Shown here one piece after another: positions 12,736 to 64,000 of a DNA stretch of 64,000 nucleotides. The notes beneath the pieces are model-generated. The model saw only the letters and a program-made list of their open reading frames with translations. It was not told the origin of the DNA and ran no database searches. The position numbers and the translations under genes are program-made. Source of the DNA: SAR202 cluster bacterium bin16 (GTDB lineage: Bacteria; Chloroflexota; Dehalococcoidia; Lucifugimonadales; Australimonadaceae). Within the stretch, counting starts at the first letter, position 1. Each line of letters starts with the position of its first letter. The stretch is from the NCBI GenBank assembly GCA_002238425.1, contig MPMJ01000004.1:37454-101453 (forward strand). The letters are read 5' to 3'.

Positions 12736-12851
12736 CCGAACCGGTGAACAGGAACCGGACGGGAGGCAGAGACCGAGCAGAGGGCATAGGCGGACGAGGG
12801 ACGGGAACCGGACAGAGGCAAGGAACGAAGGGTAGGCGAACCAGGCAGGAC

Positions 12852-15707
12852 ATGGCTGACGAGATTACGATCACGATAGACGGGCAGGAGGTCACGACGA
12901 CCCCCGGCAAGATGGTGGTGCAGGCCGCCAACGACGCCGGCATCTACGTGCCGTACCTCTGCTACCACCCCGGCATGAAGCCGTACGGCGCGTGCCGCAT
13001 GTGCGTCGTCGAGGTCGAGGGTCAGCGCGGTACGCCTGCGTCCTGCACGTTGCCGGTCCGCGACGGCATGGTCGTGAACACCAAGGGCGACGAGGCAGTG
13101 AAGGTGCGGGACACGACGCTTGACCTGCTGCTGTCGGAACATCCACACGGATGCTTGACATGCCACCGGATAGACCTGTGCGGCCCGCAGGACATCTGCC
13201 TGCGGCACGTGGATGTGGTCGACCGGTGCGTGACCTGCCCGAAGAACGAGCGCTGCGAACTGAAGGACACCACGCGCTTCCACCCGCAGGAGCTGGTCTC
13301 CCCGCTCACGTACCAGTACCGCAACCTGCAGGTGGAGACGAAGGACCCGTTCTACGACCGCGACTACAACCTCTGCATCGTCTGCGCGCGCTGCACGCGG
13401 GCGTGCGACGAACTGCGCGGCGACGTTGCGATAGGCATGACCGAGCGCGCGGGACAGGTGCTCGTCGGCACGGTGATGGGCGACTCGCTCCTCGAGTCCG
13501 GCTGCGAGTTCTGCGGCGCGTGCATCGATGTCTGCCCGGTGGGCGCGCTCACGGAGACCTCCTACAAGTGGGAGCGTCCGGCGCGCGTCGAGCAGTCGGT
13601 CTGCGCCGAGTGTCCCGTCGGCTGCACGATGACCTACGAGGTCAACCACTGGGAGCGGGTCGTGCGCGCGGTGCCGGAGCTGAACTCCCCGGCGAACATG
13701 GGGCAGGCGTGCTTCCAGGGCAAGTTCGGGTTCGAGTACGTCAACGACAAGCGCCGCATCCGGAAGCCGCTCGTGCGCCGGGACGGCGAGCTGCAGGAGG
13801 CCACGTGGGACGAGGCGATAGCCGCCGCGGCCGAGGGGCTTGCGCAGTACAAGGGCTCGACGTTCGCGCTCATGGCGAACCCTCGCAACACCAACGAGGA
13901 GCTCTACGCCGCGCAGAAGTTCGCGCGCGCCGTCATGGGCTCGAACAGCGTCGACGTGGCGTCGAACGACCGCCCCGGCACGGTCGAGGGACTGCAGGAC
14001 GTGTTCGGCTACTTCGCCGGTACGATGACCACGTGGGAGCTTGCCGACTCCGCCGCCGTCATGGTGGTGAGCGCGAACCTCACTGAGGAGCAGAACGTCA
14101 TCGGCGTGCCGATCAAGCGGGCGGTCCGCAACGGTACGCAGCAGCTCATCGTCATCGACTCGCGCGAGGTCGAGCTGACGCGGTATGCGTCGCTCTGGCT
14201 GAGGCCGTACCCGGGCACCGACCCCGTCCTGCTCGGCGGGCTGCTGCGCTGCATCGTCGACAACGGGCTGGCGGACATGGAGTTCGTCAACGAGCGCGCG
14301 GAGGGCTGGGACGAACTGGCCGCCTGCCTCGCACCGTTCACGCTGGACGCGGTCGCCGCTGAGACCGGCGTGTCCGCGGCAAGCATCGAAGAGGCAGCGC
14401 GCGTCTACGCCGGGTCTGGCGCCTCGGCGCTGCTGCTGGGCGGCGACGGTTCAGTCGGCGGCACGCGGCGGACGATGTCGCGGATGGCTGCCGGGCTCGC
14501 CATCGCCACGGGCAACGTGGGCAAGCGCGGCGCGGGCGTCATGCCGCTCTACCAGGGCGCGAACGGGCAGGGCGCGTGGGACATGGGCATCTGGCCGGGA
14601 GCGACGCCCGGTCACAACCTCATCCAGGAAACGCCGGAGGCCCGCGAGGCGCTCGGCGCGCTCTGGGGCGCTCCCGTGCCGCTGGAGATCGGCTCAGGCA
14701 ACCGTCACATGTTCGACCGGGCTCGCGAAGGCGCGATCAAGGCGATGCTCGTGCTGGACGACCACGTCCACTACGAGGACGGCACGCTCGGCGATGTGAC
14801 GGGCGGGCTCGATGCGCTGGAGTTCCTCGTGGCAACGAGCGCGTTCCCGTCGGCGGTCACGGAACGGGCGGACGTCGTCTTTCCCGCCGAGGTATGGGCC
14901 GAGAAGACGGGCACGTACACGAACATCGAGCGTCGTGTGCAACCGCTCCGCAAGGTGGCGAAGAACAAGCGCGTCGACTCGCGGAGCGACCTCGACGTGG
15001 TCTGCGCCATCGCGGGCGCGATGGGAGCGCGGGGCTTCTCGTGGGACGGCCCGGCGCAGGTACTCGACGAGATAGGGCAGGCCGTGCCCGAGTACGCCGG
15101 CATCTCCTGGGAGCGCCTGCTTCGCGAGCGGCTCGACATCGTGACGACTCCCAGTGATGAACCGCAACCGACGCAGGTGATGTACACAGGCAACGTGCTC
15201 ACCGGCCTCCAGTGGCCGTGTGCGGCCGAGGGTTCGGCAGATGAACCTGAGATGTTCGTAAGCCGGTTCCGGCACGGCAAGGCGCAGTTGCAACCCGTCG
15301 CGTGGCACCCGCGCCCCACAGCCGGTGCGGAGTTCCCGCTGATGCTTGCGCATGGGCGTGTGCTCCTGGAGCCGGGCCGCAAGCCGAACGTGACGGTGGT
15401 CGGCAAGCGCAACCGTGTGGAGCGCGAGGAGCGCTTCGTACTCAACCCCGCGGACGCCGCCGCGGCCAGGCTCGGCGAGGGCGACGCGGCCTCGGTGACG
15501 ACGGCTGACGGCAGCGAGCGTCGCGGCGTGGTCGCGCTCTCGGACGCCGTGCCCGCGGGCGTGGTGTCGCTGACGACGCTCTTCGGCGAGTTGGCGGTCG
15601 AGGTCGACTCCTCCGACCGCCCTGACCCCATGAATCACATCGCCCGGCTGAACGCCGTGCCGGTACGTATCGCGGCCACGTCCCACGCCGGTTCACCCTC
15701 ACCCTAG
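12852..15707 (+). CDS. NuoG/FdhA-like molybdopterin-oxidoreductase-family subunit with N-terminal [2Fe-2S]/[4Fe-4S] domains
   Basis: ORF 12744..15707 trimmed to ATG 12852 (MADEITITIDGQEVTTTPGKMVVQAANDAGIYVPYLCYHPG..GACRMCVVEV). Fe-S cysteine clusters are followed by MopB and C-terminal beta-barrel-like regions. Confidence 0.85.
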   Translation: MADEITITIDGQEVTTTPGKMVVQAANDAGIYVPYLCYHPGMKPYGACRMCVVEVEGQRGTPASCTLPVRDGMVVNTKGDEAVKVRDTTLDLLLSEHPHGCLTCHRIDLCGPQDICLRHVDVVDRCVTCPKNERCELKDTTRFHPQELVSPLTYQYRNLQVETKDPFYDRDYNLCIVCARCTRACDELRGDVAIGMTERAGQVLVGTVMGDSLLESGCEFCGACIDVCPVGALTETSYKWERPARVEQSVCAECPVGCTMTYEVNHWERVVRAVPELNSPANMGQACFQGKFGFEYVNDKRRIRKPLVRRDGELQEATWDEAIAAAAEGLAQYKGSTFALMANPRNTNEELYAAQKFARAVMGSNSVDVASNDRPGTVEGLQDVFGYFAGTMTTWELADSAAVMVVSANLTEEQNVIGVPIKRAVRNGTQQLIVIDSREVELTRYASLWLRPYPGTDPVLLGGLLRCIVDNGLADMEFVNERAEGWDELAACLAPFTLDAVAAETGVSAASIEEAARVYAGSGASALLLGGDGSVGGTRRTMSRMAAGLAIATGNVGKRGAGVMPLYQGANGQGAWDMGIWPGATPGHNLIQETPEAREALGALWGAPVPLEIGSGNRHMFDRAREGAIKAMLVLDDHVHYEDGTLGDVTGGLDALEFLVATSAFPSAVTERADVVFPAEVWAEKTGTYTNIERRVQPLRKVAKNKRVDSRSDLDVVCAIAGAMGARGFSWDGPAQVLDEIGQAVPEYAGISWERLLRERLDIVTTPSDEPQPTQVMYTGNVLTGLQWPCAAEGSADEPEMFVSRFRHGKAQLQPVAWHPRPTAGAEFPLMLAHGRVLLEPGRKPNVTVVGKRNRVEREERFVLNPADAAAARLGEGDAASVTTADGSERRGVVALSDAVPAGVVSLTTLFGELAVEVDSSDRPDPMNHIARLNAVPVRIAATSHAGSPSP

Positions 15708-21116: not shown

Positions 21117-21914
21117 ATGGTGCGAGAGGCCGAGCGGGCAGAAGCGGACGGCAAGGCGGAGATAAGCCTTGCGGAGCAGTTCGCGCTGCACCCGGAGATG
21201 GACGAGCCGGAGGAGTTCCTCGGCGGGCCGTACAACCTCTCGGTGTGGCAACCGAAGGACCCCGAGCATCGCCAGTTCCAGCAGAACGCGCCGAGGGCCG
21301 GCGAGCCGATGCCTGACTTCACGCTGCCGCTGCTGGACGGGGGCGAACTGACGCTGTCGTCGCTGCGTGGGAAGCCGGTGATGATCGAGTTCGGCTCCGT
21401 CACCTGACCGCCATGCGTGGCGGAGTCTCCGTCCATGGAAGACCTTGCGAACAGGTACGCAGACGACGCGCACTTCCTGTTCGTCTACACGCGGGAGGCG
21501 CATCCCGGCGAGCACTACCCGCCCATCCACTACTATGAGCAGAAAGTGCTGCACGCACGTTCGTTCAGGGAGCGGCTGGGGATCGGGCGCACCATCCTCG
21601 TGGACTCGGTGCAGGGGAAGGTGCACCGGGTGTTCGGCGGCGTATCGAATATGTCGTGGATCGTCGACCACACGGGACGCGTTGCATACCGGGCAGCGTG
21701 GACGGTTGCCGACGACATCGAGCGCGCGCTCCAGGAGGTGCTGCGAGCCCGGATGCTGAAGCGCGAGGGGCAGCCCGCGGCGGTGTTCTACCGGGAGATC
21801 GTGGGTCTGCGTACGATGCGCGAAGGGCCGCCGGACGGGCTGCCGCGATACATGGGCGGCGAGGTCGCTGCGCGGCAGTTCGAGGCCGCCCGCCGCAAGA
21901 CGGAACGGGCGTAG
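21117..21914 (+). CDS. Iodothyronine-deiodinase-like thioredoxin-fold protein with in-frame TGA (candidate selenocysteine) at 21405-21407
   Basis: ORFs 21087..21407 and 21417..21914 share one frame and are separated only by TGA plus 3 codons. The read-through gives ..GKPVMIEFGSVT-U-PPCVAESPSMEDLANRYADDAHFLFVYTREAHPGEHY. Start taken at ATG 21117 (gggagg RBS 6 nt upstream), with ATG 21087 as an alternative. Confidence 0.75.
21419..21433 (+). promoter_or_regulatory. Candidate bacterial SECIS hairpin (6-bp stem, GUC loop) 11 nt after the UGA
   Basis: ggcgga-guc-uccguc pairs as G19-C33, G20-U32, C21-G31, G22-C30, G23-C29 and A24-U28. The geometry is the same as at 34485-34499. Confidence 0.55.
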
Positions 21915-29045: not shown

Positions 29046-30437
29046 ATGAGCCCCATAGTGCGTGGGCTGACGATGCTTTACCTGACGACGATCCTGCTCG
29101 GGTTCGCGCACGGGATGCTGCCCCCTATCATCCCGGTCCTTGCGAACGAGTTCCACATCTCAGGAGGGTTCGCGGCGCAGGTGGTCACCGCCTTCACCGC
29201 GGGGCGGCTGATCGGCCAGCCGGTCGGCGGAACGCTGATCGACAAGTTCGGCACGAAGCCGGCGGTCATCGGTGGGCCAATCATCATCGGAATCTCGGTA
29301 TCGATCGGTATCGTGACGCCGTGGTTCTGGCCGTTGCTCTTGGGGCTGTTCGTTGCGGGCGCCGCGGACAGCGTCTGGATGCTGGGACGTGAGGTTGCAG
29401 GCGTGGACCTGGTGAAGGCGAACCAGCGCGGACGGCTCATGAGCGGGTTCATGGGTTTCCACGGCGTGGGAATGGGACTCGGGGCGTGGCTGGGCGGGAC
29501 CGTGGGCGAGGAGATGGGCGCAACGGTCGTGTTCGGCATCTACACCGCTATCGCGGCGTTCGTCTTCTTCATCAGCGTGCTCATCCCCAGCGCCGACCGG
29601 CCGAAGGCCGCTCCTGCCGCAAGGCTCCCGGTCGAGGACGTCAGGGAAGGGAGCCAACTGGACCGCGTGCGCAACCTCTATCTGCAGATCGACCCGCGCC
29701 TCAGGGCGACGTACATCGTGCTGGTGTTCGCGACGGCGAGCATGATGCTCTACCGCATGGCGTACCAGGCCATCCTGCCCCTGCACATGGACGAGATCGG
29801 GCTGGACCCCAGCCAGATCGGCGAACTCTTCGCCGTCGTTGCCATCGGCTCGCTGGTGATGATCGTGCCGGCGGGGTTCGTTGTGGACAAGATCGGGCGG
29901 AAGTGGGCGACCGTGCCGAGCACGGCGATACCCGGCATCGCCTTCCTGTTCATCCCGTTCACGGGCGACATGGGGCCGCTCATCGCGATAGCCGTGCTCA
30001 TGGGCTTCTCGAACGGACTGTCACTGGGGTCGGTCGCCACGTCCACGTACGACGTCGCGCCGGATGCGATACGCGCGCGGCTGCAGGCGGCGCGGCGGAC
30101 GGTCGCGGAGGTGGGCGCCATCACGGGCCCGCTGCTCGGCGGGTTCATCGCGGTGCAGTTCGGAGCGGGTACTGCATTCTTCGTGTACGCGCCGGTGTTG
30201 CTCCTGGCTGCGATACTGTTGCTGTTCGTCGCCCGCGAGACGCTCGTGAAGGTCTCGGCCGCCGCAGCGTCCCTCGGGAACGGAGAACCCGTCTCCGGCC
30301 TCGCGCTCCTGAAGTCGATTCCGGTGCTGCTCATCGGCGCTGCGCTGCTGGTGTTCGTCGCGCGGAGCAGGCGGACGAAGCGTCTGACGGATGAGGGTTC
30401 CCGCGACCGCAGCGCCGCAGGTGCGGACCGCTCGTGA
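29046..30437 (+). CDS. MFS transporter
   Basis: 463-aa ORF with about 12 predicted hydrophobic helices and the MFS loop motif [17 protein letters not shown]. Confidence 0.85.
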
Positions 30438-30577
30438 TACGGGGCCTCGCGCAGCGCACGCCGTTCTACTACGGGGGGGTCGGCGCTGGGGCGGGGGTGG
30501 TGCCCGTGGTGGATGCGGGGCCCGGCGCGGGCCACGCCGTTCTACTACGGGTGGGTCGTCGCTGGTGCGGTGCTGAT
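30436..30577 (+). repeat. Direct duplication (about 66 bp, about 80% identical, 75-bp offset) of the 5' end of the second MFS gene
   Basis: Copy 1 is gatacggggcctcgcgcagcgcacgccgttctactacgggggggtcggcgctgg (30436-30500). Copy 2 is gatgcggggcccggcgcgggccacgccgttctactacgggtgggtcgtcgctgg (30511-30577). Confidence 0.7.
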
Positions 30578-31760
30578 GACGATGACGATCAGCGGGGCTG
30601 TCGCCGCCCCGATGTTCAGCGTCTTCATCCCCCGGTGGTCGGACGAGTTCGGCTGGTCGCGCACGGCCATCTCCGGCGCGTTCAGCTTCGGGACGGTCGC
30701 AGCCGCGCTGGCAGGGCCGCTGGTCGGCAGGGCGCTCGACAAGTACGGCGGGCGGTGGGTGATGGGTGGCGGCGGGCTGCTCATGGCGGCCTCGGTTGCG
30801 GGACTGGGGTTCGTGGGGAACCTCGTGGGCCTCTACGCCGCGCTCGTGGTCGCGCGAACGGCGTTGATGAGCATCCAGAACCTGGGCGGGCACACGGTCA
30901 TCGCCAACTGGTTCGTGCAACGGAGGGCGTTCGCGACGGCGGTCGCGGTGAACGGAAGCCGCCTGGGGCTGGGGCTGTGGCCGCTGCTGGGGGCCGCGCT
31001 CATCGCTGTGATGGGCTGGCGGGAGGCGCTGTGGATGGTCGGCGCGCTCATGGCGCTGTTTTCGTTCTTCCCGCTCATCGCCATCGTGTCGCGGCAGCCG
31101 GAGGACGTGGGGCTGTACCCGGACGGGCGTCCACCGCTCCCTGCCCACGAGGCCCAGTCGCGACAGGTGCGTGCCGAGCACCAGTGGCGTCCACGGGAGG
31201 CACTGCATACGCATGCGTTCTGGTTGTTGCTGTTCGCGCACATGGGCGCGATGGTGGCGGGCGGGGGCTACGGCCTGCACCGCATACCGCTCTTCCTCGA
31301 CCGGGGCCTCGCGGAAGGGTGGGTAGGGCCGGTGCTGATGTTCCACGCGGTGGGCATGCTCGTCGGTGGGTTCGTCGCCGCATGGTTCATGGGACGCACG
31401 TCCTACCGCGTCGTCATCGCGGGGTGCATGGCGGGCGCGTCGGCGGCGATGGCGGCTGCAGGTTTCATTCCCCCGGGTGTGCCGATGGCCGTCTTCACGT
31501 TTGCGGAATCGATGGTTTTCGGCGGCGTTTTCGCGATGTTGCCCGTCGTTTACGCCGAATATTTCGGGCGCGACTCGCTTGGAACGATACGAGGTATCGC
31601 GCATCCGGCGGTGGTGGCGTCGAACGCGGTCGGGCCGGTCTTCGCGGGATACGTGTTCGAATCGTCGGGGGCGTACACGATGGCGCTCGTTACCTTCAGC
31701 GTCGTGTTGGGCGTGGGGGCAGTCAGCGCGCTGCTGGCGCGCCGCCCGGTCCTGCGCTGA
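30513..31760 (+). CDS. MFS transporter (second, oxalate/formate-antiporter-like layout)
   Basis: 415-aa ORF with 12 hydrophobic segments and an AGPLVGRALDKYGGR loop motif. Confidence 0.85.
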   Translation: MRGPARATPFYYGWVVAGAVLMTMTISGAVAAPMFSVFIPRWSDEFGWSRTAISGAFSFGTVAAALAGPLVGRALDKYGGRWVMGGGGLLMAASVAGLGFVGNLVGLYAALVVARTALMSIQNLGGHTVIANWFVQRRAFATAVAVNGSRLGLGLWPLLGAALIAVMGWREALWMVGALMALFSFFPLIAIVSRQPEDVGLYPDGRPPLPAHEAQSRQVRAEHQWRPREALHTHAFWLLLFAHMGAMVAGGGYGLHRIPLFLDRGLAEGWVGPVLMFHAVGMLVGGFVAAWFMGRTSYRVVIAGCMAGASAAMAAAGFIPPGVPMAVFTFAESMVFGGVFAMLPVVYAEYFGRDSLGTIRGIAHPAVVASNAVGPVFAGYVFESSGAYTMALVTFSVVLGVGAVSALLARRPVLR

Positions 31761-33774: not shown

Positions 33775-34599
33775 ATGGCTGACTATCCCCGGAACGACCT
33801 GCTCGTCGAGACCGGCTGGCTCGCGGAGCATCTGACGGACCCGAACGTACGCGTCATCGAGATGGCGCAGGACGGCAGCGACTTCGAGGCCGGGCATATC
33901 CCCGGCGCGGCGCTCTCGCCGACCTGGCAGGTCAAGGGCTCGGAGCAGAAAAGGCTCGTCGCGCCGCCGGACGAGGCGAAGGCGTGGTTCGAGTCCGTGG
34001 GTATCGGCGACGACACGCTCGTCGTGGGGTACGACCGCTTCCACAGCCGGGACGCATCGCGCCTCTGGTGGGTGCTGAACTACTACGGACACACCAACGT
34101 TCGCGTCCTGAACGGCGGGTGGACGAAATGGATCGCGGAGGGGCGCGACGTCGAGGCCGGCCCTTCACAGGTGACCGGCGGCGGCGTGACCTTCACTCCG
34201 CAGCCTCCGAACCATGACATCGAATCGGACGTCGACAAACTCAAGGCCGCGGTTGGCGCGGACGACACCGTCATCTGGGACGTGCGGACGGAGGACGAGT
34301 ACACGGGAGCGAACTCGCGCGGCAACGCTCGGGTAGGGCACGTGCCCGGCGCGGCGTTCCTGGAGTGGGTGCATCTCGTGGCGGACGACGACACCTTCAA
34401 GTCCGCGGAGGAGATCGAGGAGATAGCGCGCGGGCTCGGCATCACGCCGGAGAAGACGGTCCACGTCTACTGACAGGGCGGGGTGCGTGCGTCGCACGCC
34501 ATGCTCGCCCTCAAGCTCATCGGCCACGAGTCTGTGTGCATGTACGACGGCTCGATGGGCGAGTGGGCCAACCGGGACGATACCCCGCTGGAGGTGTAG
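33775..34599 (+). CDS. Two-domain rhodanese (thiosulfate/3-mercaptopyruvate sulfurtransferase family) with in-frame TGA (candidate selenocysteine) at the active-site position, 34471-34473
   Basis: ORF 33775..34473 stops at ..EKTVHVY-TGA. The same frame continues QGGVRASHAMLALKLIGHESVCMYDGSMGEWANRDDTPLEV to TAG at 34597-34599. The TGA occupies the catalytic Cys of the rhodanese C-x-x-G-x-R-(S/T/A) loop. Confidence 0.8.
34485..34499 (+). promoter_or_regulatory. Candidate bacterial SECIS hairpin (6-bp stem, GUC loop) 11 nt after the UGA
   Basis: gcgugc-guc-gcacgc gives perfect Watson-Crick pairs between 34485-34490 and 34494-34499. An outer helix agggcg/cgcccu (34475-34480 / 34506-34511) encloses it. 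Confidence 0.6.
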
Positions 34600-63478: not shown

Positions 63479-64000
63479 TCAGGGAGTGCCGGCGAGTTGC
63501 AGTGCGAGTGTTGCCGGGTCGTGGGCGGGCAGATCGCAGACGTAGCCGTGGCAGACGTAAGCGGTGGGCGCAGCCGCGCCGGCGCGTCCCTCAAGCAGCG
63601 GCGTGAGGAACGGCGACACCTCGCCCGGGGCCAGCCCCACGAATGCGAATGATGGCAGCCGCTCCCGCAGCGGCGCCAACAGCGAGCGAGCGCCCTCGCC
63701 GGACGGGTCTCCGGTGACGACGACCTCCGTAGGCGGCGCGAGGTAACGGTCGATGATCCGCAGCCAGTTCCCGAACCCCAGTGGATAGCGCGCCGCGAGC
63801 GGTGCGACGCCCCGGATGAGGCGCTCCGCCTTCTGTGCGAGCGACTCGTCGCCCGTAAGTACGGCCATGCGCAGCAGCGCCTCGGCGGCTGCCGAGCTGC
63901 CGCACGGCGTGGCGTTGTCCGTGATGTCGCGCGGGCGCACGATCAGCTCCTCGTGGTCGGAGCCCACGTCGTAGAACACGCCTTCGTCGTCGTCCCAGAA
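63479..64000 (-). CDS. YyaL/SSP411-like thioredoxin-domain protein, C-terminal part (5' end outside window)
   Basis: The frame is open to the window edge. ..DNATPCGSSAAAEALLRMAVLTGD... and ..AYVCHGYVCDLP match the six-hairpin glycosidase-like C-terminus of the DUF255/YyaL family. Confidence 0.7.
   Translation of the reverse strand, partial: FWDDDEGVFYDVGSDHEELIVRPRDITDNATPCGSSAAAEALLRMAVLTGDESLAQKAERLIRGVAPLAARYPLGFGNWLRIIDRYLAPPTEVVVTGDPSGEGARSLLAPLRERLPSFAFVGLAPGEVSPFLTPLLEGRAGAAAPTAYVCHGYVCDLPAHDPATLALQLAGTP

Follow-up and report, generated by a model that had tools for sequence, protein, structure and literature searches.

Two genes in the metagenome-assembled genome of a marine Dehalococcoidia bacterium (Chloroflexota, SAR202-like) each contain, within the coding region, a hairpin that is very probably a bacterial SECIS element. 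Both lie in a single 64-kb stretch of DNA, which was analysed as a whole and is called the window here; one gene encodes a rhodanese-family selenoprotein and the other a deiodinase-like selenoprotein. In each, an in-frame UGA occupies a Cys position, the frame is conserved beyond it, and the hairpin downstream is held in register with compensatory changes and synonymous selection. SelB would be expected to bind both hairpins and to direct selenocysteine (Sec) insertion at both UGAs, and the genome presumably carries selA, selB, selC and selD.

Two Genes with an In-Frame UGA

The rhodanese gene (33775-34599, + strand) comprises 274 codons when read through the UGA and encodes two rhodanese domains (Pfam Rhodanese PF00581, 5.1e-32, in two stretches). 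Its putative Sec-UGA, TGA 34471-34473 (+; site A), falls at the catalytic Cys position of the rhodanese active-site loop (VY-U-QGGVRAS), and the U-Q-G-G of the predicted peptide ...TVHVY-U-QGGVR... fits the motif U-x-x-G. Gene callers cut this gene into a 232-aa product and a 32-38-aa remnant; the same 232-aa fragment has been called on 12 contigs, including GCA_034428675.1, GCA_026712685.1 and several metagenome contigs, and nearly all of the best 120 protein matches are 230-235 aa long, that is, cut at one point. Among the 80 best-matching loci from species-representative genomes (L007-L086), all titled Dehalococcoidia, SAR202 or Chloroflexota, 78 have TGA at this codon with the frame kept downstream, and the two exceptions, L049 and L071, have TGC. 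The UGA aligns with the Cys of L049 and of P0116/L071 (YAYCQAAVRG), and the tail past it is conserved as QGG[VI]RA[AS]H...YDGSMGEWANRDDTPLE. One protein of 274 aa, P0090 from a 139-kb contig, was considered as a full-length read-through form and rejected as frameshifted; it is 93% identical to the rhodanese over the first ~130 residues and then continues as Arg-rich nonsense, probably owing to an assembly error.

The deiodinase-like gene, of AhpC-TSA fold (21117-21914, + strand; 265 codons read through the UGA), matches AhpC-TSA (3e-12), Redoxin (4.4e-11) and T4_deiodinase PF00837 (5.7e-10; 39.3 bits against a cut-off of 27), all above the Pfam cut-offs. The NCBIfam model deiodinase_rel NF038285 matches at 2.6e-26 with 92.9 bits, below its cut-off of 250, and the protein is therefore not an equivalog of that model. 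TGA 21405-21407 (+; site B) lies in FGSVT-U-PPC, a UxxC redox motif, the predicted Sec peptide being ...EFGSVT-U-PPCVAESPSMEDLANR; the U-P-P-C of the window gene takes the form U-P-[PYF]-C across the family. Gene callers cut the gene into 96-aa and 159-aa products, a split also seen in L172, and the best protein matches are C-terminal fragments of 150-176 aa. The UGA aligns with the Cys (FGSxTCPxT) of the full-length homologues P0164, P0168, P0172 and P0179, which are at most 40% identical by BLASTP and 26-32% identical in the alignment, and TGA is kept in 78/78 readable metagenomic loci with the motif FGS[VILFY]T-U-P[PYF]C. The two coding contexts, a two-domain rhodanese and a deiodinase-like thioredoxin-fold protein, are unrelated, as an earlier note on this DNA had held. 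On the chromosome OY764542.1 (L172, L012), roughly 13 kb separate the two Sec genes, rhodanese and deiodinase-like; the spacing in the window is similar, and the arrangement is therefore syntenic. Both genes are also present in OZ242348.1, another complete genome of the clade.

Coding-like in-frame TGAs in the window are sites A and B, a weak candidate at 63650 (+) near the edge, and TGA 30435. The last was rejected as a third Sec codon: it is the normal stop that separates two MFS transporter genes arranged in tandem and sharing one frame. A 76-nt tandem duplication (30408-30559; 72% identity, with a 19-nt exact repeat, cacgccgttctactacggg, inside) takes in both the stop of the first MFS gene (29046-30437) and the start of the second (30513-31760); since these two genes share a frame, they mimic an in-frame UGA at 30435. 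With only two in-frame UGAs in 64 kb, UGA does not serve this genome as a general sense codon. The window also contains a large molybdopterin/Fe-S, formate-dehydrogenase-like ORF (12744-15707, +) that has no in-frame UGA and whose orthologue in L172 is a single 951-aa product. It seems that Sec is employed by this lineage in thiol/redox proteins and not in this formate-dehydrogenase-like enzyme. Genes for selA, selB, selD and tRNA-Sec were found neither in the window nor, for any sel gene, near either locus.

Geometry and Folding of the Hairpins

At site A, the upper stem-loop GCGUGC-GUC-GCACGC (34485-34499, +) starts 11 nt past the UGA and consists of a spacer (34474-34484), the stem arms gcgtgc (34485-34490) and gcacgc (34494-34499), and the loop gtc (34491-34493). 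It is flanked by an outer helix, agggcg 34475-34480 with cgccct 34506-34511 (+), and a possible lower helix in which 34475-34482 pairs with 34504-34511 (+) encloses the upper hairpin in the minimum-free-energy fold. At site B, the upper stem-loop GGCGGA-GUC-UCCGUC (21419-21433, +) likewise starts 11 nt past its UGA, with the spacer at 21408-21418, the arms ggcgga (21419-21424) and tccgtc (21428-21433), and the loop gtc (21425-21427); one of its six pairs is G.U. Both stems are uninterrupted 6-bp helices closed by 3-nt loops, both TGAs are in frame with translated ORFs that run on beyond them, and the distance from UGA to loop is 17 nt at either site (the 11-nt spacer plus the 6-nt stem arm). 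Coordinates and bases, those of the outer helix included, agree throughout with the earlier description.

That description had also taken the shared geometry (UGA, 11-nt spacer, 6-bp stem, GUC loop) to be other than chance, and the counts bear this out. The exact pattern TGA-N11-stem6-GUC follows only 2 of the 1,544 TGA trinucleotides of the window, namely sites A and B; conversely, 14 stem6-GTC-stem6 hairpins occur in the 64 kb (both strands, G.U allowed), and those two sites are the only 2/14 with a TGA at -14. When the loop is relaxed to G[G/T]N, the hairpin is found at 75 of 127,942 window positions (5.9e-4), which puts the chance that two pre-specified UGAs both match at ~3e-7. The relaxed pattern stands after 4/1,544 TGAs, where ~0.9 chance matches are expected; besides sites A and B these are 58299(-) and 52803(-), both of which were rejected as out of frame with local ORFs. 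Six-bp triloop hairpins as such number ~250 per strand in the window.

When the individual sites were folded, site A gave its hairpin as the minimum-free-energy structure (-24.1 kcal/mol, z -3.06). The hairpin at site B is not the minimum in an isolated 45-mer, where a rival fold directly after the UGA, CCGCCA-UGCG-UGGCGG, wins. This competing hairpin (21408-21423) was rejected, since only 55% of its cells are paired across orthologues, no better than in shuffled or slid controls. With the UGA in the A site, a hairpin at 21408-21423 would be located within the ribosome.

Conservation of the Hairpins among Orthologues

Hairpin A was followed through 69 distinct rhodanese sequences in a gap-free alignment. 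All six pairs are present in register in 63/69, and 96.4% of the cells are paired; sliding the 3' partners lowers this to 35-53%. At the base of the stem, 42 sequences have C-G and 23 have G-C, and a second pair changes from G-C to U-A in three. The codon combinations at the basal pair are V(GUG) with A(GCN) in 23 cases, I(AUC) with G(GGN) in 36 and V(GUC) with G(GGN) in four; the partner therefore follows the wobble base and not the amino acid, and the compensation operates at the RNA level. In addition, the Arg codon within the stem is CGU in 66/69 sequences, a codon used for 6% of Arg in the N-terminal portions of these genes and for 9.5% in the window genes; its fixation points to selection on the synonymous codon in hairpin A. 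The six sequences off register have shifted hairpins that still begin their loops with G: UGA+12, 7 bp and GUCA in L064 and L073, and UGA+17, 7-8 bp and GUC or GGUGU in L070, L075, L076 and L081. For the outer helix of site A, 78% of the cells are paired, changes are mostly one-sided between G-C and G-U, and the 5' arm coincides with the conserved Q-G-G codons, so that comparative support for this helix is weak.

Upkeep of stem A goes together with residue swaps in the rhodanese active-site loop (34483-34499 and its orthologues). The coupled swaps are V..A with I..G, through exchange of G-C and C-G, and A to S together with H to N, through exchange of G-C and U-A. By this comparison of sequences, the structure of the SECIS RNA constrains the residues beside the catalytic Sec.

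Hairpin B was followed through 68 distinct deiodinase-like sequences, 55 of which have all six pairs in register, with 95.6% of the cells paired; slid-3'-partner controls over both families give 33-57%. Compensatory changes occur at 4/6 pairs. All four Watson-Crick pairs are seen at the basal position (G-C 41, A-U 11, U-A 5 and C-G 4, besides G.U 4), and the covariation score is 0.623; shuffled columns give 0.19, with 0/500 shuffles attaining the observed value, and slid partners give no more than 0.145. A subgroup of these genes has UGA+12, 6 bp and GGUC. The same register is held by deiodinase-like genes from soil metagenomes that are 40-47% identical and lie on contigs without taxon assignment.

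Over the 137 distinct orthologous elements of the two families, the loops are GGC 85, GUC 21, GGU 10, GUU 9, GGG 7, GUG 3 and other 2. A G[G/U]N loop stands in register in 135/137, the exceptions being shifted hairpins with GUCA, GUC or GGUGU loops, and the constant feature of the loop is a first G followed by G or U. The GUC loop, which the earlier note had regarded as part of the shared geometry, is consequently a minority form, and the fixed geometry is not obligatory given the shifted hairpins at UGA+12 and UGA+17 and the deiodinase-like UGA+12 form with GGUC. Its proposal to look for the hairpin in Sec orthologues was borne out by the counts above, by the tracking of the wobble base and by the Cys forms. 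Five Cys homologues (L049, L071, L167, L168 and L170) pair in register at only 1-3 of the 6 positions, and in L049 the I-R-A-A-H peptide is the same as in Sec forms but the codons AUU and CGC break the stem.

The association with Sec sites is equally marked. In a scan of the loci (~480 kb, both strands, 958,260 positions), TGA-N11-6bp-G[GT]N was found at 149/158 Sec sites (raw loci, near-duplicates included) and at 2 of the ~12,400 other TGA trinucleotides; a similar frequency after ordinary TGAs had been named beforehand as a ground for abandoning the pattern. The two non-Sec matches (L037:240 and L122:2058) were rejected as lying in non-coding-like frames. A further in-frame UGA was noticed on the soil metagenome contig WNFP01082171.1 (L167:1-320, minus strand), at the peroxidatic Cys of a peroxiredoxin (AhpC/TSA) gene with the motif FYPLDWSPT-U-TNEM; this gene is called as two genes, and its divergent neighbour is a Cys-type deiodinase-like gene. 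The RNA past that UGA has no UGA+11, 6-bp, triloop geometry, and the geometry is therefore not universal.

Rfam gave no SECIS match for the whole window at gathering thresholds, the sole family found being tRNA-Lys, and only unrelated noise, without any SECIS family, around both sites at E<=10. A covariance model, as proposed in the earlier note, was built from the deiodinase-like elements (R1); searched over the window together with the 80 rhodanese loci, it found only its own site, at 49.8 bits, and no SECIS element of the rhodanese family. Because the bare pattern occurs at ~6e-4 of positions and R1 fails across families, a genome-wide motif scan needs ORF context; the shared part (UGA, spacing, 6 bp and one G) is too poor in information for discovery across families or genomes without it.

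Comparison with Known SECIS Elements and Selenoproteins

The bacterial SECIS consensus is that of the bSECISearch model (Zhang and Gladyshev 2005), which is outlined in PMC13188914. In it, a loop of 3-9 nt is carried by a stem of 4-16 bp, the UGA-to-loop distance is 16-37 nt, and the loop has G in one of its first two positions, mostly as G[G|U]N. The present elements, situated in the coding region immediately 3' of the UGA, fall within all of these limits (loop of 3 nt, stem of 6 bp, G[G/U]N, distance of 17 nt), and nothing qualitative differs, although they lie at the compact end and their register is unusually strict. As is asked of a SECIS element, Sec orthologues retain the structure, with compensatory changes, and Cys orthologues (the five Cys controls) lack it.

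The minimal SECIS of E. coli fdhF is the upper stem-loop, ATCGGTTGCAGGTCTGCACC (PMC10945757). In NC_000913, the arrangement reads UGA + 11 nt + GGUUGCA-GGUC-UGCACC, or TGA + CACGGCCCATC + GGTTGCAGGTCTGCACC, and the likeness to fdhF drawn in the earlier note holds: in both systems the upper stem begins exactly 11 nt past the UGA, is ~6 bp long and bears a loop with G-U followed by C (GGUC in fdhF, GUC here). What marks elements of the fdhF type is a U bulged out of the upper stem, together with a loop that contains the dinucleotide G-U. Unlike fdhF, the stems described here have no bulged U and are closed by a triloop instead of a tetraloop, which places the first loop G at position 21 and not 22 (counted from the U of UGA). 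The G-U is present at both window sites, but most orthologues have no loop U (GGC 85/137).

As for the proteins, a Rhodanese-related sulfurtransferase and a Deiodinase-like protein were reported in 2005 as selenoproteins with predicted bSECIS elements in a survey of the Sargasso Sea (PMC1088965), and a 2026 review gives rhodanese as a UxxG form and the deiodinase-like protein (PF00837) as a UxxC form (PMC13188914). The present rhodanese shares with the published Sec family (PMC1088965, PMC13188914) the rhodanese fold, Sec in place of the catalytic Cys, and U-x-x-G; it represents a specific, very widespread clade of Dehalococcoidia/SAR202 and is likened to that family by fold and motif. The other protein resembles the bacterial deiodinase-like family (PF00837; PMC1088965, PMC13188914) in its thioredoxin fold, its T4_deiodinase match and a bSECIS in the coding region, and its FGSxT-U-PxC motif recalls the FGS-x-T-U-P of animal deiodinases. 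It is, however, a bacterial protein and falls outside the NF038285 equivalog.

Proposed Mechanism and Alternative Explanations

In E. coli, the 11-nt spacer is established to occupy the ribosomal mRNA channel. If the same holds here, then with the UGA in the A site the spacer would fill this channel and the 6-bp hairpin would stand at its entrance. The C-terminal domain of SelB, charged with Sec-tRNA(Sec) and GTP, would bind the apical G[G/U]N loop and the upper stem, and the SelB ternary complex, so tethered beside the A site, would allow the UGA to be read as selenocysteine and not as a stop. A structure of SelB on the ribosome is available (5LZD, cited in PMC10945757).

The splitting of both genes by gene callers, together with the absence of Sec machinery from the window, would also suit true stops in pseudogenes or split genes, or a UGA reassigned to a standard amino acid. 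This reading is most improbable, and is effectively refuted, because dozens of species, down to about 45% identity, preserve both the UGA and the reading frame after it; moreover, the UGAs lie exactly at catalytic Cys positions, coding-like in-frame UGAs number only two in 64 kb, and TGA serves elsewhere as an ordinary stop, for example at 30435. It is also very improbable that the hairpins are by-products of conserved peptide motifs in GC-rich DNA with no selection on the RNA. The stems do overlap highly conserved motifs (QGG[VI]RA[AS]H in the rhodanese, AE-x-P / LAAPA in the deiodinase-like protein), several stem columns are invariant, and GC-rich coding DNA is rich in hairpins, to judge from the ~250 six-bp triloops per strand. 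Nevertheless, compensatory double changes that track the wobble base are found at two pairs in the rhodanese and four in the deiodinase-like family, the rare CGU is fixed in 66/69 sequences, the stem is missing from Cys homologues that share the peptide motif, and slid-partner controls fall to 33-57% paired. The by-product reading is thereby already largely refuted, and selection for bacterial SECIS elements is preferred.

A different question is whether these SECIS elements form a class of their own, as the earlier note supposed in calling them lineage-specific. A separate minimal SECIS class, UGA-N11-6bp-GUC, served by a Chloroflexota SelB of its own specificity, would agree with the recurrence of one geometry at two unrelated genes of one genome, with the very rigid register in both families, with the absence of the bulged U found in the fdhF upper stem, and with the lack of this geometry in the peroxiredoxin-type Sec gene of the unrelated soil contig (L167). 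Such a class is nevertheless unlikely: GUC is a minority loop (21/137) and GGC dominates, close relatives included, all parameters lie inside the general bSECIS consensus, the 11-nt offset is common to E. coli fdhF, the register is kept in soil deiodinase-like genes at 40-47% identity, shifted hairpins work in some orthologues, and the basis for a class is two gene families. The claim of lineage specificity is therefore unsupported, in view of the fit to the general consensus, the equal offset in E. coli and the soil homologues. It is doubtful, too, that the UGA, the 11-nt spacer, the unbroken 6-bp stem and the G[G/U]N triloop together constitute a distinct, rigid 29-nt minimal SECIS module. 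If they did, selenoprotein genes of separate families would share the module, both in Chloroflexota and in other bacteria, from soil, and its SelB could do without the bulged U and the loop U that E. coli has. It would be a naturally compact and portable tag for Sec insertion, and its demands would have visibly shaped residues in the active-site loop of an enzyme (V/I with A/G; A to S with H to N).

Implications

The elements are typical bacterial SECIS elements and the genes are new, mis-annotated members of known selenoprotein families, so that the known view of selenocysteine insertion is unchanged by them. Their practical value is for annotation: gene callers split or truncate the two genes at the catalytic residue, and do the same to the orthologues across dozens of Dehalococcoidia/SAR202 genomes. 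As a result, these lineages look devoid of a functional rhodanese and of the deiodinase-like redox protein. The two genes also offer a clean example in which an RNA structure limits the choice of codon, and even of amino acid, within the active-site loop of an enzyme.
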